DNA of 64,000 nucleotides from Escherichia phage PHB12. A program made the translations under genes and the position numbers. Below, in pieces: positions 10,906 through 49,012 of the stretch. The stretch lies in the sequence record MK524178.1; one strand, 5' to 3'. Within the stretch, counting starts at the first letter, position 1. The number at the start of each line of letters is the position of its first letter. The notes under the pieces were generated by a model that was given only the letters and a program-made list of their open reading frames with translations, made no database searches and had not been told where the DNA came from.

Positions 10906-13900
10906 ATGGTTGACATCAAACGTAAGTTCAGGGCCGAAGATGGTCTTGACGCAGGCGGTGATAAGATAGTTAACGTTGCGCTTGCTGACCGCACAGTTGG
11001 CACCGATGGCGTGAACGTTGACTTTTTGGTGCAAGAAAACACCGTACAGAATTATGACGAGACGCGCGCGTATACAAAAGATTTTATTGTTCTTTATGAT
11101 AATCGTTTTTATCAAGCTTTAAGCGATATTCCAGCTCCGGCAGGCCCTTTCTCTTTGGCTAAATGGAAGGCAACTCGTACAGATGCAGAATGGATTACAG
11201 TTCAAGGCGGAGATTTCCAATTATCAGTAGGTAACTCTATTGCGGTTGATACTTCAGCTGGCACTGATATTAATTTCACTTTGCCTCAAAATCCTTTAGA
11301 TGGCGATACAGTTATTTTGTCTGATATTGGCGGTAGAGTAGGCTATGTAAAAGTTCAAATTACTGCAGCGGCTCAAAGTATTGTAAACTTTAGAGGACAA
11401 CAGGTTCGTTCAGTTTTAATGACGCACCCAAAATCTAAAATGGTCTTCATTTTTAGCAACCGCCTATGGCAAATGTATGTTTCTGATTACGAACGTAATG
11501 CAGTCACAGTAACTCCTGCTGCGCCATATCAAGCGCAACCTAATGATTTTATCATTCGACGTTTTACATCAGCCGCTCCTATTAATATTACATTGCCTCG
11601 TAATGCTAATAATGGCGATATTATTAATTTAGTGGATTTGGACAAATTAAACCCATTATATCACACAATTGTCAAAACTTACGATGATACAACTTCTATA
11701 CGAGAAGCTGGTGTTCATGTAGCAGAAGGACGTAATACTGCGGAAGCATTCTTTGTTTATGATTCTGCCAATAGTTTATGGCGTGTTTGGGAAGGTGACC
11801 AGAAATCTCGTTTACGTATAGTTCGTAATGATACTGATTTACGCCCTAATGAAGAAGTTCTTGTTTTTGGAACTAATAATGATACAATCTCGACGGTAAA
11901 TCTTACTTTGCCTACAGATATTTTGTCTGGCGATACTGTTAAAATATCGTTGAATTATATGCGTAAAGGGCAAACTGTAAAAATTAAAGCTGCTGAAGGC
12001 GATACAATTGCTAGCAGTATTTCTTTATTACAGTTCCCAAAACGTTCGGAGTATCCACCTGATGCACAATGGGTTTCTGTTAGTGAGCTAGAATTTAATG
12101 GTGATACTTCGTATGTACCTGTACTTGAGTTAGCTTATATAGAAGATTATTCATCTGAAACAAAATATTGGGTAGTTCAACAAAACACCGTAACCGTCGA
12201 ACGAGTCGATGCATCGAGCAATACCACTCGAGCTCGTTTAGGTGTTATTGCTCTTGCTTCTCAAGCGCAAGCAAATGTCGATTTAGAAAATGCTCCTGGT
12301 AAAGAACTGGCTATTACTCCGGAAACATTAGCAAATCGTACAGCAACTGAAACTCGTCGTGGTATTGCTCGTATTGCAACAACTGCACAAGTTAACCAGA
12401 ATACCGATTTTGCATTCCAAGACGACTTGATTATTTCTCCTAAGAAATTGAACGAACGTACAGCAACTGAAACCCGTAGAGGTGTTGCTGAAGTTGCAAC
12501 TCAGGCTGAAACTAATGCTGGAACAGATGACACCACTATTATTACTCCTAAGAAATTGGATGGCCGTCAAGGTTCTGAAGTTTTATCTGGTATTGTAAAA
12601 TACACATCTACGACTGGTACTACAGCGGCTACTGTTCGTGGTAATGCTGGGACTAACGTTTATAACAAAGCCGTAGATAATTTAACTATTTCTCCAAAGG
12701 CTCTTGACCAGTATAAAGCTACCCCTACTCAGCAGGGTGCAGTAATTCTTGCTATTGAAAGTGAAGTTATCGCTGGCGAATCACAAGCTGGTTGGGCTAA
12801 TGCTGTAGTGACCCCTGAAACTCTGCATAAGAAAACTTCTACTGATGGACGTATTGGTTTAATTGAAATTGCTACGCAAGCAGAAACTAACACTGGAACT
12901 GATTATACTAGAGCAGTAACGCCTAAGACGTTAAATGATAGGAAAGCTACGGAAGGATTATCTGGCATAGCCGAAATTGCTACGCAAGTTGAATTTGATA
13001 CTGGAACTGATGATACTCGTATCTCGACTCCACTGAAAATTAAAACTCATTTTGATTCTTCTGACCGTACCAGTGTTAATTCTGATTCCGGACTTATTGA
13101 AGAAGGAACCTTGTGGAACCATTATACTCTTGATATTTCTAAAGCAAATGAAACACAACGTGGTACACTTCGCGTAGCTACTCAGGCAGAATCTAATGCC
13201 GGAACTTTAGATGATGTTCTTATTACTCCTAAAAAACTTTTAGGGACTAAGTCCACTGAAACGTCTGAAGGCGTGATTAAGGTTGCTACTCAGGCTGAAA
13301 CTGTAACAGGAACTTCTGCTAATACTGCTGTATCACCTAAGAATTTAAAATGGATTGTCCAGAATGAACCAACATGGGCTGCTACTACGGCAATTCGTGG
13401 ATTCGTTAAAACTTCATCTGGTTCTATTACATTCGTTGGTGACGATACTCAAGGTAGTACCCAGGACCTGAATCTTTACGAGAAAAATAGTTATGCTATT
13501 TCTCCATATGAATTAAACCGTGTACTTGCTAACTATTTGCCATTGAAAGCTAAAGCCGTAGATAGTAATCTGTTAGATGGTCTAGATTCTCTTCAGTTCA
13601 TCCGTAGAGACATCGACCAGACGGTTAATGGTTCTTTAAGTCTTACTAAACAGACCAACCTGAGTGCTCCTTTAGTATCTACAAGCACTGCTTCTTTTGG
13701 TTCCGAAGCATCTGTTACTCGTAGATTAACTCTTAATGACTCTAGTGGTTCCGAAATAGTTTTCACTAAAGGAACTCAATCTCTTAGTAATAAAGAGAAT
13801 TTCGTTGTTAGAGCATGGGGTAATAGCGCTACAGATGGTGCCCGTGATACAGTATTTGAAGCGGGTGACGAAACCGGATACCATTTCTATTCTCAGCGCG

Positions 13901-14739
13901 CTTCTGATAATAAAGTATCATTTAATATTAATGGAACACTTTATTCAACAGGCATTGTTTCTACAAATGGATTAAACGTTACAGGTTTTTCTACCTTTAC
14001 CGGGCCTATTAGTGCTACAGGCGAAATTGTTTCTAGTTCTCCTATTGCATTCAGAGCTATTAACGGTAACTATGGTGTTATGCTTTATAACGCTGGTAAC
14101 AGTTCTTATATTGCATTAACTAACTCAGGTGACCAGACCGGGACGTTTAATAACTTACGCCCGATCACGATTAACAACGCCACAGGCTTAGTTCGTCTTG
14201 ACAATGGTGTTCAAATCACAAGTGGTGCAACAATAACTACCGGTGGGTTAACTGTAAATAACAGGATTATTTCTAACGGCGTTAAAACTGCCACGGTTTA
14301 TACCGATAAACCAACAGCTTCTACTGTAGGTTTTTGGTCTATTGACATTAACGATTCTGCCGTATATAGCCAATTCCCTGGATACTGGACGCGTGATAAC
14401 AAAGGTAACCGTGACCAAGAAATTAAATATCCTGGTACTTTGACTCAATTCGGTAATAGCTTAGATTCGCTTTATCAGGATTGGATTTGTTATCCTACAG
14501 GTGCAAATGGCGGTAGTATTCGTTATACTCGTACCTGGCAGAAAAATAAAGATGCTTGGACTTCATTTGCAATGGTATTTGATAGTGGCAACCCACCTTC
14601 ACCTAGCGATGTCGGTGCTATCCCGTCTGATAATGCTGTTATTGGAAACCTTACTATTCGAGACTTCTTACAATTAGGAAATGTGAGAATTGTTCCGGAC
14701 CCGGTTAACAAAACAGTTAAATTTATATGGGTTGAATAA
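10906..14739 (+). CDS. 34: Long tail fibre proximal subunit gp34
   Basis: 1277 aa; internal repeated motifs (TATETRRGIARIATTAQV, IATQAETNTG...) typical of phage fibre repeats; position and size as T4 gp34. Confidence 0.95.
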   Translation: MVDIKRKFRAEDGLDAGGDKIVNVALADRTVGTDGVNVDFLVQENTVQNYDETRAYTKDFIVLYDNRFYQALSDIPAPAGPFSLAKWKATRTDAEWITVQGGDFQLSVGNSIAVDTSAGTDINFTLPQNPLDGDTVILSDIGGRVGYVKVQITAAAQSIVNFRGQQVRSVLMTHPKSKMVFIFSNRLWQMYVSDYERNAVTVTPAAPYQAQPNDFIIRRFTSAAPINITLPRNANNGDIINLVDLDKLNPLYHTIVKTYDDTTSIREAGVHVAEGRNTAEAFFVYDSANSLWRVWEGDQKSRLRIVRNDTDLRPNEEVLVFGTNNDTISTVNLTLPTDILSGDTVKISLNYMRKGQTVKIKAAEGDTIASSISLLQFPKRSEYPPDAQWVSVSELEFNGDTSYVPVLELAYIEDYSSETKYWVVQQNTVTVERVDASSNTTRARLGVIALASQAQANVDLENAPGKELAITPETLANRTATETRRGIARIATTAQVNQNTDFAFQDDLIISPKKLNERTATETRRGVAEVATQAETNAGTDDTTIITPKKLDGRQGSEVLSGIVKYTSTTGTTAATVRGNAGTNVYNKAVDNLTISPKALDQYKATPTQQGAVILAIESEVIAGESQAGWANAVVTPETLHKKTSTDGRIGLIEIATQAETNTGTDYTRAVTPKTLNDRKATEGLSGIAEIATQVEFDTGTDDTRISTPLKIKTHFDSSDRTSVNSDSGLIEEGTLWNHYTLDISKANETQRGTLRVATQAESNAGTLDDVLITPKKLLGTKSTETSEGVIKVATQAETVTGTSANTAVSPKNLKWIVQNEPTWAATTAIRGFVKTSSGSITFVGDDTQGSTQDLNLYEKNSYAISPYELNRVLANYLPLKAKAVDSNLLDGLDSLQFIRRDIDQTVNGSLSLTKQTNLSAPLVSTSTASFGSEASVTRRLTLNDSSGSEIVFTKGTQSLSNKENFVVRAWGNSATDGARDTVFEAGDETGYHFYSQRASDNKVSFNINGTLYSTGIVSTNGLNVTGFSTFTGPISATGEIVSSSPIAFRAINGNYGVMLYNAGNSSYIALTNSGDQTGTFNNLRPITINNATGLVRLDNGVQITSGATITTGGLTVNNRIISNGVKTATVYTDKPTASTVGFWSIDINDSAVYSQFPGYWTRDNKGNRDQEIKYPGTLTQFGNSLDSLYQDWICYPTGANGGSIRYTRTWQKNKDAWTSFAMVFDSGNPPSPSDVGAIPSDNAVIGNLTIRDFLQLGNVRIVPDPVNKTVKFIWVE

Positions 14740-22715: not shown

Positions 22716-23176
22716 TAATAAAGGTCCTCTGAATAAAGTTCTTTCTCACTTCCGCCACGTTCAATACGTACCTGACCAGCATACGTTGCAATAACCATTG
22801 CTTCTTCACGTGTCCAGTAATTAGAGTATTGGTCAATAAAGCCTTGGTCGTCGCCACAAACTTGTTGCGAGACTAATTGAGGACCAACTATGTCAAGTAC
22901 TTCAGCCATATCTTTAGAGTAATGACGAACTCCAGGAATAACCAGAGTTCCACCACTCTTCAATTTAAACCTATTAGCTGCACATACTATAACACGTTGA
23001 ACTTTTTGGTCATTATTCCAATAGCACGTTTGCCAACAGATTTCAGGAACTTCATTCATTATATCATCAGCAGAATAATTATAACCGTAGGACTGGAATT
23101 TTTCTGCTAGACTTTCAGGAGTCTCACGAGACAAGGCCAAATCTAATAGCTCTAAACGTTCTTTAAATGATTTCAT
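22715..23176 (-). CDS. Hypothetical protein
   Basis: 153 aa; no motif I can assign with confidence. Confidence 0.5.
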
Positions 23177-23502
23177 TTAAACCATTCCTTAATACGTTGC
23201 CAAATAGATTTTTGTGCTTGTTTATTTACACCAATCGAACGAATAACCGGTTGTGACTGCTGATATTCTTTATAATCTTCTTTATAGATTTCGTAAGCTG
23301 CATCAACAAATGAACTGATCGCTGCCATGTAGTTTTTACGAAGGCCGAATGGTGCGTCATTATTTTCACGAATAATCATATATTGGCCTGCTTTAATCTT
23401 TACAATTGTCCCTAAATAAGCCCCGTGGTACCAAATATCCCATCCTTCCTGAGTAGGTTCTGCACATTTACGAAGTTCGTTAATAACATTCAGCTTATTC
23501 AT
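23173..23502 (-). CDS. Hypothetical protein
   Basis: 109 aa ORF directly downstream of motA. Confidence 0.45.
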
Positions 23503-23512
23503 TATGTATTCC

Positions 23513-24145
23513 TCACAGTACGTTAGTTACAAGGGTAATGATTTCTTTGGACACATTAGGGAAGTCAATGTAAGTATATTTACCACCGATCTTAATCTTA
23601 ACATCATTTTCAAGAGAAGTAAACAGCTTTGATTCAGTTTCTGACATGTTGTATGCAAAGATTCTAAGAGAACCATTTCGACGAATTTCGATCTGACGAA
23701 TACCTAGAACTCGTTTTGCAAATCGAACTTCCAAGTTACTACGGTTTTCACCAATTTCTTTAACTTCAACTTTATCTTTAATATTTTCAAAAACAAAGTT
23801 TGCTAGTTCATGCATTTCAGGAGTAACTCCACGTGCTTTTCTGGTGTTACGTTTCTGAAGAAGTTCTGGAGCATTTTCTTGGGCAAAGAGGTCTGCAGCT
23901 TTTTGGATAATATCCATTGCTTCGCCTGTTGCTATAAGTCCATCACCAGATTTTTCGACTAAACCTTTCTTAATCAATACACCAATGTTAGAGTTAACAA
24001 CCGATGCATTGTATTCCGCTTCCAGAGCTTCCCGGACATTGGCAGCAGTGGTGAAGTTGTTCTTAATGATATAAACCATTATTGCAGCAGTTTTTTCATT
24101 CAGAGCGTTTTCGGAAGCTTTGATGATGTAAGTAACTTTAGACAT
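23513..24145 (-). CDS. motA: Middle-transcription activator MotA
   Basis: 210 aa; size and position as T4 MotA; N-terminal MSKVTYIIKASENALNEKTAAIMVYII. Confidence 0.9.
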   Translation of the reverse strand: MSKVTYIIKASENALNEKTAAIMVYIIKNNFTTAANVREALEAEYNASVVNSNIGVLIKKGLVEKSGDGLIATGEAMDIIQKAADLFAQENAPELLQKRNTRKARGVTPEMHELANFVFENIKDKVEVKEIGENRSNLEVRFAKRVLGIRQIEIRRNGSLRIFAYNMSETESKLFTSLENDVKIKIGGKYTYIDFPNVSKEIITLVTNVL

Positions 24146-24220
24146 TTTATTTCTCCAATTTGGTTGTTTTGTTTTGATAGGTCTATAATATCATGTTTGA
24201 AGCAAAAGTAAACTTTATTT
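24137..24220 (-). repeat. Direct repeat copy A (early promoter plus 5' leader plus first codons) upstream of motA
   Basis: About 84 bp nearly identical to 24458-24540, including a 64-bp perfect core. Confidence 0.85.
24185..24213 (-). promoter_or_regulatory. Early promoter for motA
   Basis: Minus-strand GTTTAC, 17-bp spacer, TATTAT; inside repeat copy A. Confidence 0.65.
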
Positions 24221-24250
24221 TGGGCTCTTTTTCAAAAGCCCTGGTAAAAT

Positions 24251-24466
24251 TTACAAACTCATTTCTTTAATAAGGCTAATAAGTTTTGCCTTTTTAGAAC
24301 GAAGCTTTTCTAAATGATGTCCATTTGAACCGCGAACCACTAAAGAATTGATTTCAACTTCTAAGAAATTTAATTCTTCAACAAGTGCTTTACGTGGAGC
24401 ATTCATACCAGGTTTAACTTTACCGAAACGAGTAGTTGTGTTTTGGGTTAATTTCATTTTAGACAT
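24251..24466 (-). CDS. Hypothetical basic protein
   Basis: 71 aa; its own copy of the motA promoter/leader repeat upstream; starts MSK like motA. Confidence 0.5.
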   Translation of the reverse strand: MSKMKLTQNTTTRFGKVKPGMNAPRKALVEELNFLEVEINSLVVRGSNGHHLEKLRSKKAKLISLIKEMSL

Positions 24467-24540
24467 TTTATTTCTCCAATTTGGTTGTTTTGTTTTGATA
24501 GGTCTATAATATCATGTTTGAAGCACATGTAAACTGTTTT
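24458..24540 (-). repeat. Direct repeat copy B (early promoter plus 5' leader)
   Basis: Near-identical to 24137-24220. Confidence 0.85.
24506..24534 (-). promoter_or_regulatory. Early promoter for ORF 24251-24466
   Basis: GTTTAC, 17 bp, TATTAT on minus strand inside repeat copy B. Confidence 0.6.
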
Positions 24541-24559
24541 GTGAGAAAAATGCACAAAA

Positions 24560-24575
24560 GGGAGCCGAAGCTCCC
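24560..24575 (-). terminator. UUCG-tetraloop hairpin terminator after gene 52 (GGGAGC-UUCG-GCUCCC then UUUUG)
   Basis: Perfect 6-bp stem, UUCG loop, U-run on minus strand, about 77 nt after gene 52 stop. Confidence 0.6.
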
Positions 24576-24651
24576 TAATCATGTTTGTCCAACCAATACA
24601 GCCAAATCACTAGTGCAGCTATTGCACCGAGAAATCCTAAGGCTAGGGCAC

Positions 24652-25977
24652 TCAAAGTGCCTCCAAGTCTTTAGTGTACTCTGTCACAACATCAGTAGAC
24701 TTCCAATACTCATTTTCTTCTTTCTTAGCTTTAGCTTCTTCTGCTAGTTTACGTGCTTCGTCGGAAGTGATATGGAAGATGTTAAGGCCTACCAGTTTAT
24801 CGACATGTTCTTTATACATTTCGATTTGTGCTAGCTCTTCAGTCAAAGCTTTACGAGTCTTGCCCTGAATCACAATTTCACCTGTAATAACTTTTTTGAT
24901 GAAGTGTGCCTTAGCAAAAGCCAGTTTAAATGCTTTTTCAGATTCAAGGATTTTGTTGTCAATACGTTTCTGAACGTAAGTCTTACGGACTTCAACAAAA
25001 TCTTTGATTAAGTCCACTACGTTATCGTAGACAGCTAATTTACCCTTTTCATTAATCACTGTGATGTTTTGTGAACGACGTTCGATGAGACTAAAATCTT
25101 TCATGATTTTTTCATGACGTAGCTCTTCATCATCAGGAAGCGAGTACTCTTTACGGAACTTCACCTTAAACCCAAAGCCGTGTTCACCACAATCATCTTC
25201 CCATGAGATTAGACCTTTGTCTTCCAGCGGGTCAAGAACCTTACTCACATACGTTTCACGGTCAAATTTATATGGGATTTCAGTTATCTGCATTTGAGTG
25301 CGAGATGTGAACTTATATGTTCCGTGAATCTCATAACGCCCATCAACTTCATGTACTTCACCACGGAATTCCGGGAATTCAACTTTTGGCTTAGTGACAT
25401 TTTTACCTTGAAGAGCTTGTAATACAGCCTTTTTGACTGATTTAAAACTATGAGGCAGAATATTTGTTGCGTAACCGGTTGCAATACCGGAGACACCATT
25501 CAAAAGAACTGTTGGAATAATAGGAAGATAGAATTTTGGTGGAATGTGTTCTTTATCTTCATGAGCTGGAGCATATTCAGTATCTTTATATACGTTATAG
25601 AAATTTTTACTTACACGAGCAAAAATATAACGAGACGCTGCAGCTTTTTGGACTGTTCGAGAACCAAAGTTGCCTTGGCCATCTAACAGTGGATAGTTGT
25701 TGTTCCATGTGTTAGCCATCAATGCACCTGCATCTTGTGCAGAAGATTCGCCATGGTGATAACCTAAATCTGCAACACCACCTGCAATTGACGCAAGTTT
25801 ATGAAATTTTTCTTTATTACCACGAGCCAAATCTAACGCACGATGAACCACAAAACGTTGAACCGGCTTAAATCCATCAATCATGTTTGGGATTGCACGG
25901 TTTTCAACGGTGTACATCGCATATGCTAAGGCTTCGTTATCAATAATACTTTTTAGATTACGAGAATTCAATTGCAT
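24652..25977 (-). CDS. 52: DNA topoisomerase II medium subunit gp52
   Basis: 441 aa; MQLNSRNLKSIIDNEALAYAMYTVENRAIPNMIDGFKPVQRFV matches T4 gp52 (GyrA-like). Confidence 0.95.
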   Translation of the reverse strand: MQLNSRNLKSIIDNEALAYAMYTVENRAIPNMIDGFKPVQRFVVHRALDLARGNKEKFHKLASIAGGVADLGYHHGESSAQDAGALMANTWNNNYPLLDGQGNFGSRTVQKAAASRYIFARVSKNFYNVYKDTEYAPAHEDKEHIPPKFYLPIIPTVLLNGVSGIATGYATNILPHSFKSVKKAVLQALQGKNVTKPKVEFPEFRGEVHEVDGRYEIHGTYKFTSRTQMQITEIPYKFDRETYVSKVLDPLEDKGLISWEDDCGEHGFGFKVKFRKEYSLPDDEELRHEKIMKDFSLIERRSQNITVINEKGKLAVYDNVVDLIKDFVEVRKTYVQKRIDNKILESEKAFKLAFAKAHFIKKVITGEIVIQGKTRKALTEELAQIEMYKEHVDKLVGLNIFHITSDEARKLAEEAKAKKEENEYWKSTDVVTEYTKDLEAL

Positions 25978-36236: not shown

Positions 36237-36761
36237 TCATTTTAGCAAAATAAAATCAACTTGTTCTGCCAATGAACGTCTAAACATTAATTGACAACTT
36301 CCGAGGATGAAATCAGGTGCTTCATAGACCGCGATGTAGTATCCTTTAGCTTTCAAGAGTTCAACATCCACCTGGTCATCAAACCATGCATAAACCGCGT
36401 CAACACTTTCAAATCCAAAATAGAACCCTTGGGCCCAATCTTCACTCAATTCAAATGTGTGCTCAATTCTATAGTATCTTAAGATATTTTGTTCAAGGAG
36501 TTTGTCTTCATTTACTGTAGGACGATTAGGGACATTATAGTTGTCACCGTGATGGTAGAAGTTACCTGAGATTATTCCATGTTTATCAAGGAACTCCCAT
36601 GTTTCTTCAGAGTTGTCGGTGCCCGACCAACCGTATGGTGAACGAGGTTCTTTATTCCAAGAGGTTTCCCAAATTCTGACGGCTTTACCGTCTTCGATAG
36701 CAATTCCTGGTAATGATTCACGTTGAGTACAAAAACTACGTTCTACACGATAAACTAACAT
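36237..36761 (-). CDS. Hypothetical protein
   Basis: 174 aa from ATG 36761 (MLVYRVERSF...) preceded by SD GAGGAGAA and an early promoter. Confidence 0.45.
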   Translation of the reverse strand: MLVYRVERSFCTQRESLPGIAIEDGKAVRIWETSWNKEPRSPYGWSGTDNSEETWEFLDKHGIISGNFYHHGDNYNVPNRPTVNEDKLLEQNILRYYRIEHTFELSEDWAQGFYFGFESVDAVYAWFDDQVDVELLKAKGYYIAVYEAPDFILGSCQLMFRRSLAEQVDFILLK

Positions 36762-36787
36762 ATTATTCTCCTCTGGTTGATATGGGT

Positions 36788-36816
36788 ATAATATCAAAAC
36801 CAGAGGAGAAGTAAAC
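36788..36816 (-). promoter_or_regulatory. Early promoter
   Basis: Minus-strand GTTTAC, 17 bp, TATTAT, upstream of ORF 36237-36761. Confidence 0.6.
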
Positions 36817-36820
36817 AACT

Positions 36821-37240
36821 TTATGCGAAAGCAGCTGGGGTATATTTTTTAATTTGGAATTCAGGAACTACCATGAACTGACCAGCGAAAACGATGTTAT
36901 AAAGCTTAACACCATCTTCAACCCATTGGTCGCTGATAAATCCGGCGATTTGCTTAGTTTTCCACGGTGTTCCATCAGTTGCCGCAGCAATAGTGAATTC
37001 ATGGTCTTTTTCAACAGAAACTGATCTGCATAGTCCCCATTTGAACGCTTTTTCTTCTGGTTCAATGAATTGGCTTGAGACGTAGCCAATATTACCATTA
37101 GCATCACGAACTTTAACTTGGTTACGACCAAAAACCGGATCACTCACAGAAAGAACTTCAACCAACTTCCCGGCAACTTTAGAGCGAGAAGCAACAGATA
37201 CATATACGTAATCACCTGTAGAGAGATTTACAATATTCAT
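36821..37240 (-). CDS. Paralog family member 1 (DQWVEDG C-terminal motif)
   Basis: 139 aa; shares N-terminal SRSKVAGKLVEV and C-terminal GFISDQWVEDGVKLYNIVF with the next ORF. Confidence 0.5.
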   Translation of the reverse strand: MNIVNLSTGDYVYVSVASRSKVAGKLVEVLSVSDPVFGRNQVKVRDANGNIGYVSSQFIEPEEKAFKWGLCRSVSVEKDHEFTIAAATDGTPWKTKQIAGFISDQWVEDGVKLYNIVFAGQFMVVPEFQIKKYTPAAFA

Positions 37241-37249
37241 AATAATTCC

Positions 37250-37705
37250 TTAAGCTTTACGAGGAGACACATAGCGAGTGATTTCAGATTCTTTAACAAC
37301 TCGGAAGTCACCTAAGAATACGATATTGTATAACTTTTCACCATCTTCAACCCATTGGTCACTAATGAAGCCACACATAGTATCAGTTTTGCTTGGATAA
37401 CCGTATTCATCGATGAAGTCAAATTCTTTATCAGTCTGGAATTCAACGCCTTTGCAAAGGGCCCATTTGAACTGTACATTAGGTTCAGTGGAAGCAAAAT
37501 GAGCGCTCACAGGAGTTTCCAAGAATTTAGGACTTACGTAAGCGTACTGAGTATCCTGACGTCCAAAACTAGGAATGATTCGAACTTTAACTTCTTTAAT
37601 ACGTCCCATGCCATTTGTGCGAAGTCCGATAACTTCAACCAGACGACCTGCGGCTTTAGACCGGGATGCAATTGATACACGCTTAATTTCACCAATAGTA
37701 ATCAT
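37250..37705 (-). CDS. Paralog family member 2
   Basis: 151 aa; SRSKAAGRLVEV ... GFISDQWVEDGEKLYNIVF. Confidence 0.5.
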   Translation of the reverse strand: MITIGEIKRVSIASRSKAAGRLVEVIGLRTNGMGRIKEVKVRIIPSFGRQDTQYAYVSPKFLETPVSAHFASTEPNVQFKWALCKGVEFQTDKEFDFIDEYGYPSKTDTMCGFISDQWVEDGEKLYNIVFLGDFRVVKESEITRYVSPRKA

Positions 37706-48643: not shown

Positions 48644-48957
48644 ATTTCCTCGCAAAATGCCCATTCAGCGTGATAAACTGTGGCGCCTTTAGTATTATTC
48701 ATTTGAACTACGTCTACCGGAGAAATTACTCGATAGAGACGTGGTTCACCTCCATAAGAGCGTGCTGCTCGTCCTGCATAAATCTTTGCTAAACCGATAT
48801 CTTCAGTAAAGAATACACGATCCAAGTTTTTCTTACGTCCAGTTTCAGACAGAACTCCTGTTTCCTCAGGAGGACAAAGCATGTTTTCGATGTTAGCTGA
48901 ACTACTTGAACCGTGATAAAAAATCTTAAATTCTGCTTTACAATCGATGGTTTTCAT
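48640..48957 (-). CDS. Hypothetical protein with HGS motif
   Basis: 105 aa; FYHGSSSS...AKIYAGRAA...YHAE. Confidence 0.45.
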   Translation of the reverse strand: MKTIDCKAEFKIFYHGSSSSANIENMLCPPEETGVLSETGRKKNLDRVFFTEDIGLAKIYAGRAARSYGGEPRLYRVISPVDVVQMNNTKGATVYHAEWAFCEEI

Positions 48958-48983
48958 TTTGTTCTCCAGTAGTTGATAGGTCT

Positions 48984-49012
48984 ATAATAACACAACTACT
49001 GGAGAAGTAAAC
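48984..49012 (-). promoter_or_regulatory. Early promoter
   Basis: Minus-strand GTTTAC, 17 bp, TATTAT upstream of ORF 48640-48957. Confidence 0.6.

Follow-up and report, generated by a model that had tools for sequence, protein, structure and literature searches.

Organization of the locus between gene 52 and motA

The locus described here lies within a 64,000-nucleotide stretch of the Escherichia phage PHB12 record MK524178.1, hereafter termed the window. Its upstream boundary is gene 52 (minus strand, 24652–25977), which encodes the medium subunit of topoisomerase II, and the gene 52 stop codon is overlapped by a hydrophobic ORF of 26 codons with a TTG start (minus strand, 24575–24655). These are followed on the same strand by an ORF of 71 aa (24251–24466), termed ORF71, and by motA (23513–24145), the activator of middle-mode transcription. 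The first-pass annotation of the window had named the latter gene and had described the former as small and basic. Both descriptions hold, as the motA product matches two Pfam domains (MotA_activ, 1.1e-39; MotCF, 4.6e-09) and ORF71 has a net charge of approximately +8. Beyond motA, positions 23173–23502 encode an orthologue (95% identity) of Gp94, or "Emp", of the Mosigvirus AV110, which is encoded just downstream of motA in that phage and, according to a 2026 preprint, inhibits the MreBCD elongasome. Annotation pipelines are inconsistent in this region and frequently overlook both ORF71 and the tiny membrane ORF.

The starts of ORF71 and motA are embedded in a direct repeat of 86 nt, the two copies of which are 94% identical and separated by a start-to-start distance of 321 nt. 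Copy B (minus strand, 24458–24543) contains a predicted promoter, P_B, and the start of ORF71, while copy A (minus strand, 24137–24222) contains P_A and the start of motA. An exact search further delimited a perfect core of 68 nt (24137–24204, identical to 24458–24525), for which 100 dinucleotide-preserving shuffles yielded an expectation of 0 matches. The first-pass annotation had reported a near-identical direct repeat of about 84 bp with a perfect core of 64 bp, and realignment upholds both, the latter being contained within a perfect core that is 4 nt longer. When the whole 64-kb window was compared with itself by BLAST, this pair was the top off-diagonal match (133 bits), followed at a distance by a 57-nt match at 81% identity within coding sequence (54.5 bits) and by pairs involving other promoters (47–52 bits, 48–58 nt, 78–83% identity). 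The homology extends three codons deep into both coding sequences. Outside of the 86 nt, the same whole-window comparison detected no duplication, and the flanking sequences are unrelated.

Each copy is part of a composite with the same order of elements: a stem-loop, an A-rich tract, GTTTAC separated by a 17-bp spacer from a TGn-extended TATTAT, a 33-nt leader, GGAG, 7 nt and ATG-TCT-AAA. At copy B, the -35 element lies at 24529–24534, the TGn and -10 at 24506–24514 (TATTAT itself at 24506–24511), the predicted transcript start near 24499 and GGAG at 24474–24477, followed by the first codons of ORF71. The corresponding positions at copy A are 24208–24213, 24185–24193 (TATTAT at 24185–24190), near 24178 and 24153–24156, followed by the first codons of motA. 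The -35 context is GTTTACA in one copy and GTTTACT in the other, and the A-rich tract 5' of it reads AAAATAAA at copy A and TTTTGTGCATTTTTCTCACAAAACA at copy B. Thus, the promoter elements, GGAG and common start codons initially assigned to the perfect core are indeed all present in both copies, except that GTTTAC falls outside of the perfect core and inside the longer 86-nt repeat.

P_A and P_B are predicted early promoters with a very strong match to the consensus. Both exhibit the features of T4-type early promoters, namely GTTTAC, an A-rich UP-like tract, TGn, TAnnAT, C-rich positions -3 to -1 and the appropriate orientation. Early promoters of T4 have been classified as "UP/-35/TGn/-10" type (PMC2988021), and those of RB69 contain GTTTAC at -36 to -31, an A-rich segment at -40 to -44 and a C-rich segment at -3 to -1 (PMC1524935). 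Within the window, GTTTAC-N17-TAnnAT occurs at 6 sites versus 0.4 expected, all 6 of them on the minus strand, and the looser pattern TTTAC-N17-19-TAnnAT occurs at at least 14 sites 5' of minus-strand ORFs, several with a GC hairpin plus T-run ahead of them. Presumably, P_A and P_B, both of the sigma-70 type, would fire right after infection using the unmodified host RNA polymerase.

The stem-loops of both copies end 5–30 nt upstream of the -35 element. That of copy B (minus strand, 24559–24576) is an AGGGAGC-UUCG-GCUCCCU hairpin followed by UUUUGUGCAUUUUU, which resembles an intrinsic terminator and probably closes the unit formed by gene 52 and the small ORF; it is annotated as a terminator in the SA79RD and ATK47 records. 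The stem-loop of copy A, GGGCUUUU-GAAA-AAGAGCCC (minus strand, 24222–24241), is located between ORF71 and P_A, has a predicted folding energy of -12.3 kcal/mol (z = -3.7) and carries a WebGeSTer terminator annotation in the SA79RD record. However, what follows this hairpin on its sense strand is a run of A instead of U residues, which makes an attenuator or barrier more probable than a full terminator. Consequently, ORF71 transcripts starting at P_B would probably continue past this U-less hairpin into motA, while P_A would yield a motA transcript. If so, motA is probably served by two promoters in two-copy phages.

We also considered whether the leader might be a structured cis-regulatory RNA, such as a riboswitch, attenuator or translational operator. 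This candidate was rejected, as the leader, either alone or together with either coding start, folds no better than its shuffles (MFE of -1.7 to -2.4 kcal/mol; z between +0.4 and +1.2), and a search of Rfam at E <= 1 found nothing for it.

In T4, the locus consists of gene 52, motA.1, a terminator, one early promoter and motA, and it lacks ORF71. The likeness to the window includes the gene order (52, a small membrane ORF, terminator, early promoter, motA) as well as the GTTTAC -35 element, a GGAG with an A-rich tract and a protein start of MSKVTY, whereas the T4 gene differs in having a single promoter and another leader sequence (ACGGAGATTAGAAAATG). The T4 motA mRNA is a classic target of RegB. 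In the window, GGAGAAATAAA matches the consensus of strong RegB sites, GGAGRAYARAA (PMC3014915), at 9 of 11 positions and its GGAG is predicted by folding to be unpaired. Because of this match, RegB-type inactivation may be common to the ORF71 and motA mRNAs, although the RegB of RB69-type phages has been reported to be divergent. For the leader and early promoter of T4 motA, the source is Uzan, Brody and Favre (1990), as cited in PMC3014915.

ORF71 and its distribution among relatives

ORF71 is a real gene under purifying selection. Between Mosigvirus and Dhakavirus, its dS is approximately 1.0–1.1 with a dN/dS of 0.22–0.26, and its length is always 71 aa among homologues. It is confined to these two genera, with 76 Mosigvirus-type and 17 Dhakavirus-type GenBank records. 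A large protein database contains 8 homologues or clusters, all unnamed, and a scan of IMG/VR with ORF71 yielded two Dhakavirus-like loci only. The sole family match is phrog_6200, which is of unknown function, and there is no match in Pfam. The AlphaFold model (mean pLDDT 76) consists of a disordered basic tail (residues 1–22) and a helical hairpin (23–44 and 50–70), for which a Foldseek search of the PDB returned only generic or designed helical hairpins at E > 0.8. The 2026 preprint mentioned above screened AV110 early proteins chosen by their homology to T4, and ORF71 was outside of that selection because it has no T4 homologue.

The 1.3-kb region of the locus is matched by 155 GenBank phage records at >=95% identity, the best being NHEP10 (99.2%), and those for which the taxonomy was read are mostly Mosigvirus, i.e. 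RB69-like T-even phages. The window itself derives from a Mosigvirus. ORF71 is present in 76 of these approximately 155 Mosigvirus-type records and, by subtraction, about half lack it, RB69 included. All such database counts include duplicate or near-identical records, and some of the identity bands include phages other than Mosigvirus. We also read 14 two-copy and 5 single-copy loci base by base. The comparison of related phages for one versus two copies, which had been proposed from the first inspection of the sequence, thus revealed both states, as exemplified by RB69 with one copy and SA79RD with two.

Dhakavirus (CLB_P2 and two IMG/VR contigs) exhibits the same two-promoter layout of 52, ORF71 and motA. 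However, the identity between its copies A and B is limited to 34–41 nt of the promoter core, its two leaders are unrelated and its ORF71 starts with ATGAATAAG (MNK). Based on these comparisons, the two-promoter arrangement with ORF71 predates the split between Mosigvirus and Dhakavirus. It was initially suggested that the repeat might be a recent duplication. As the arrangement is old, being shared with Dhakavirus at an ORF71 dS of about 1, and as the sequence outside of the repeat is unrelated, we reject this suggestion.

Leader alleles and probable loss of the ORF71 cassette

Within Mosigvirus, the middle of the leader is bimodal, occurring as either allele X (CAAAACAAAACAACCAAATTGGAG) or allele Y (CAAAACAAATACTAATTTGGAG). 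From the loci read base by base, the combination at the ORF71 and motA copies is X/Y in SA79RD, G53, ATK47, Mizar and AV110, X/X in the window, NHEP10 and UGJNEcP2, and Y/Y in ST2 and phiEC1. Database-wide, the leader 5' of ORF71 is Y in 4 records versus X in about 72, as counted by the identity band of a Y-leader query, while X and Y are each found 5' of motA in roughly 90 records, some non-Mosigvirus phages included. Among the 60 best records with X ahead of motA, only NHEP10 and NHEP11 possess a second X leader. Given these allele counts, X/Y is the usual state and the perfect 68-nt X/X configuration of the window is rare and derived. Both the population frequencies and a weak similarity to outgroup leaders suggest that X is native to ORF71 and Y to motA.

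Several observations indicate that the two copies have exchanged sequence. The longest perfect stretch between A and B is 68 nt in the window, 65–66 nt in the Y/Y phages and 51 nt in NHEP10, versus 23–41 nt in X/Y Mosigvirus and in Dhakavirus, with AV110 at 37 nt. Genus-specific variants are common to both copies, with GCTTC/TATTAT in Mosigvirus and GCTTT/TACTAT in Dhakavirus, and over a 42-nt core the mean distance between A and B within a genome is 1.7–2.8, compared with 3.2–5.8 between orthologues. Furthermore, a spacer marker just 3' of the -35 element, ACATGT-type for B and TTTT for A, has traded places in SA79RD and UGJNEcP2. GGAGAAATAAAATGTCTAAA precedes both genes in 11 of 11 two-copy Mosigvirus read, with one change in Mizar. 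An MSK start is found for motA in T4, in Dhakavirus and in the Klebsiella phage compared, and since ORF71 carries the motA-type GGAGAAATAAAATGTCTAAA, an older transfer from motA to ORF71 is indicated. Such a transfer would have fixed GGAGAAATAAAATGTCTAAA ahead of ORF71 in all Mosigvirus, while a later one would have placed the ORF71-type leader X ahead of motA in the lineage of the window. The flanking SNP haplotypes are too mosaic to identify a donor of the X leader at motA.

A complementary line of evidence comes from phages with a single copy. In comparison with the window, RB69, ECO111_5P, JQD51 and JK45 each exhibit a single gap of exactly one 321-bp period (locus length of 980 versus 1301 nt) and retain one cassette, in which the B-type upstream flank is fused to motA. 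The leader Y of RB69 places its crossover within the promoter core, while the leader X of the remaining three places theirs in the segment from GGAG to ATGTCTAAA, or anywhere if the parent was X/X. In the Dhakavirus PSD9, the ORF71 leader is joined to motA at a 6-nt AAAATG. Collectively, these junctions point to at least three independent crossover positions. Presumably, unequal crossing-over or excision removes one 321-bp period, comprising ORF71, a stem-loop and one promoter, to leave a single chimeric cassette. The reverse event could also reinsert the cassette, and in any given case both deletion and insertion are possible. The allele states together with the 321-bp variants lead us to conclude that the copies are homogenised by gene conversion or recombination and that they serve as substrates for the loss and gain of ORF71. 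Both gene conversion and a role as recombination substrates had been raised as possibilities on first inspection, and they are well supported by the swapping of X and Y between positions among Mosigvirus genomes and by natural variants that lack exactly 321 bp.

Deletions between short direct repeats were reportedly described in T4 by Singer et al. in 1982 and Mosig et al. in 1998, with recombination said to depend upon the length of homology. The likeness to the present locus is that non-essential early ORFs are lost via repeats of promoters and ribosome binding sites, with the difference that the T4 deletions were lab-selected and ours are deduced from natural isolates. In T4, considerably more efficient recombination is expected of repeats exceeding roughly 50 bp. 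Given such a length dependence, loss of the cassette is predicted to be easier in the window phage, with its 68 perfect nt, than in most of its relatives with 23–41 nt, and stocks of this phage are predicted to segregate 321-bp deletion variants lacking ORF71.

Probable recombination between promoter cassettes

The architecture of the locus is highly reminiscent of the promoter-early stem-loop (PeSL) elements of T4-like phages, which combine a stem-loop, an AT-rich tract, an early promoter, an SD and a start codon, and which flank ORFans (PMC2839356). The T-even PeSL consensus is TTTACW...TAYWAT with a stem-loop just upstream (PMC4122927). Recombination between two PeSLs deletes the intervening ORFan, leaves one chimeric PeSL and forms mini-circles, and the interval from the -10 to the SD is one of the places where crossovers have been located (PMC2839356). 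In RB49, ORFan192 lies between two PeSLs, whereas only one PeSL occurs in phi1 (Arbiol, Comeau and Krisch 2010, PMC2839356; Comeau, Arbiol and Krisch 2014, PMC4122927). As a stem-loop precedes each of its copies, the repeat pair of the window fits the PeSL cassette, and all of the sequence features of these elements are found, including a promoter with a spacer of about 17 bp, a stem-loop, an AT-rich tract, an SD with a start codon and a flanked ORF that is variably present. The tandem arrangement around a small ORF of unknown function and the existence of relatives with one chimeric element are likewise shared, as are crossovers that fall between the -10 and the SD or at other points within the element. 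There are differences as well. Here, the pair is situated between the conserved genes 52 and motA, and one of the cassettes drives an essential regulator instead of a second ORFan. The homology also includes three codons, and the population-scale swapping of X and Y reveals gene conversion in addition to deletion. Neither RB69 nor motA is mentioned in PMC2839356 or PMC4122927, and no earlier account of a duplicated motA promoter in RB69-like phages came up in a literature search.

Based upon these parallels, we consider it probable (roughly 0.8) that tandem PeSL-type cassettes bracket a dispensable early gene, ORF71, upstream of motA, and that both the identity of the copies and the loss of ORF71 are due to recombination between them. 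Accordingly, we attribute the 68-nt identity to recombinational homogenisation, as opposed to functional design or a fresh duplication. The partner in the most recent exchange could have been another genome. The X/X state may have arisen during co-infection, through a cross between an X/Y two-copy phage and a single-copy phage with X ahead of motA, with the crossover in the promoter core of copy A. Single-copy genomes of this type are abundant, as 58 of the 60 best X-motA records lack a second X leader and ECO111_5P, JQD51 and JK45 are verified examples, and this part of T-even genomes shows evident mosaicism. However, the flanking SNPs point to no donor, and the single-copy X form must itself have been made earlier by an exchange between A and B. 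We regard such a cross as a realistic option, though at somewhat less than even odds, and in any event it would be a sub-variant of homogenisation between cassettes, involving the same substrate with another partner.

Explanations that dispense with recombination as the principal cause are less convincing. Selection could in theory be the main force maintaining identity, by favouring the same promoter strength, initiation region and RegB-type site so that both genes are turned on and off jointly. The near-invariance of GGAGAAATAAAATGTCTAAA ahead of both genes in the two-copy Mosigvirus and the RegB-like context of GGAGAAATAAA in unstructured RNA are both compatible with this idea. Nonetheless, the mid-leaders differ (X/Y) in most two-copy genomes, the ORF71 and motA of Dhakavirus have entirely different leaders and start codons, and about half of the Mosigvirus records lack ORF71 altogether, so identical signals are evidently not required. 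Selection would also not be expected to yield bimodal alleles that swap positions. As the main explanation it is therefore improbable, although a selective advantage of having a common leader could account for part of the identity of A and B. A related and even less probable scenario, which we would consider a long shot, is that ORF71 acts together with the MotA/AsiA middle-transcription switch or modulates it, and that the two start regions are kept identical to ensure in-step synthesis and a RegB-type shut-off at GGAG. If this were true, phages lacking ORF71 should differ measurably in their early-to-middle transition. If the motA promoter, leader and start had recently been duplicated in tandem to create the start of a new upstream gene, this would readily account for repeats that are direct, close (321 bp) and near-identical. 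Such a duplication is nevertheless very hard to reconcile with an intervening ORF71 that is under purifying selection and present in another genus at a dS of about 1, with Dhakavirus copies that share the promoter core alone and with the lack of any duplication beyond the 86 nt, and we assign it almost no weight. Even more negligible is an assembly artefact or a chance likeness within a promoter family. T-even early promoters do resemble each other, but the other promoter pairs of the window reach only 48–58 nt at 78–83% identity compared with 86 nt at 94%, no match is expected in shuffles, and the two-copy layout recurs in the 76 Mosigvirus-type and 17 Dhakavirus-type records, which were independently sequenced.

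Homogenisation between tandem cassettes, then, is a process already known for T4-like phages in the form of PeSL recombination, and the locus does not represent a new mechanism. Rather, it provides a clean natural case of how recombination at promoter cassettes lets T4-like phages acquire, shed and rewire small early genes, with the intermediates, including the two leader alleles in all four combinations and deletion products with at least three crossover points, documented across approximately 155 sequenced relatives.

Leader variants in relatives and their database records

In Shigella phage PSD9, a Dhakavirus, only one cassette is found, in which an ORF71-type leader is joined to the motA coding sequence (sense-strand position ~656-760 of its locus, L017) at a 6-nt microhomology, AAAATG. 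The ORF71 cassette has here been lost independently, in a second genus. The copy A leader preceding motA in phage G53 (locus L009) reads CTATCAAAAAAAAAAATACTAATTT and carries a longer A-run than allele Y, one of the two mid-leader forms in Mosigvirus, which suggests slippage within the A-rich leader. GenBank taxonomy lists ST2 (OM982647.1) under Guernseyvirinae/Kagunavirus and JK45 (MK962757.1) under Tequatrovirus; at the motA locus, both are 97-98% identical to Mosigvirus, so that, as far as this region goes, they seem to be misfiled. In the JQD51 record, product names are displaced by one gene.

Other early promoters and repeats in the window

Two further minus-strand early promoters, at 36760-36816 (arms CTCCTCTGGTT...AACCAGAGGAG) and 48955-49012 (arms CTCCAGTAGTT...AACTACTGGAG), each have the -10 box between the two arms of a perfect 11-bp inverted repeat, and in both the 3' arm contains a GGAG Shine-Dalgarno. 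The ribosome-binding site would be sequestered in transcripts reading through from upstream and free in those initiated at the promoter itself. Unlike the motA pair, these two represent a different subclass of the promoter-early stem-loop (PeSL) cassette. Repeats also occur within coding sequence. A 57-nt repeat of 81% identity (36887-36943 and 37316-37372, minus strand) lies in two adjacent small genes and encodes a shared C-terminal motif, SDQWVEDG.KLYNI.F.G.F.VV; these genes are therefore tandem paralogues. On the plus strand, a cluster of 44-66-nt repeats (12337-13236; 76-84% identity) encodes recurring ATETRRG.A..ATQAE.N.GTDD..I.PKKL-type motifs inside a 1277-aa ORF (10906-14739) that looks like gp34, the long-tail-fibre proximal subunit.

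Genes flanking the repeated promoters

Immediately after gene 52, a hydrophobic ORF of 26 codons (24575-24655, minus strand; peptide LSALALGFLGAIAALVIWLYWLDKHD, then a stop) is preceded by GGAGG; its TTG start shares bases with the stop codon of gene 52 (cTTTGA), and its own stop codon overlaps the terminator stem. In T4 the corresponding position is taken by motA.1, whose 49-aa product is predicted to be periplasmic or in the membrane, and in Dhakavirus CLB_P2 by a 34-aa ORF. The 26-codon ORF is unannotated in RB69 and most Mosigvirus records.

Directly 3' of motA lies a 109-aa gene (23173-23502, minus strand; phrog_1594), a homologue of arn.4/motA.-1. Many records mislabel its homologues as 'anti-restriction nuclease'. 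Its product is 95% identical to Gp94 of the Mosigvirus AV110, named Emp and reported to inhibit E. coli growth via MreB/C/D (2026 bioRxiv preprint). The transcription unit of the repeated promoters would include this gene.
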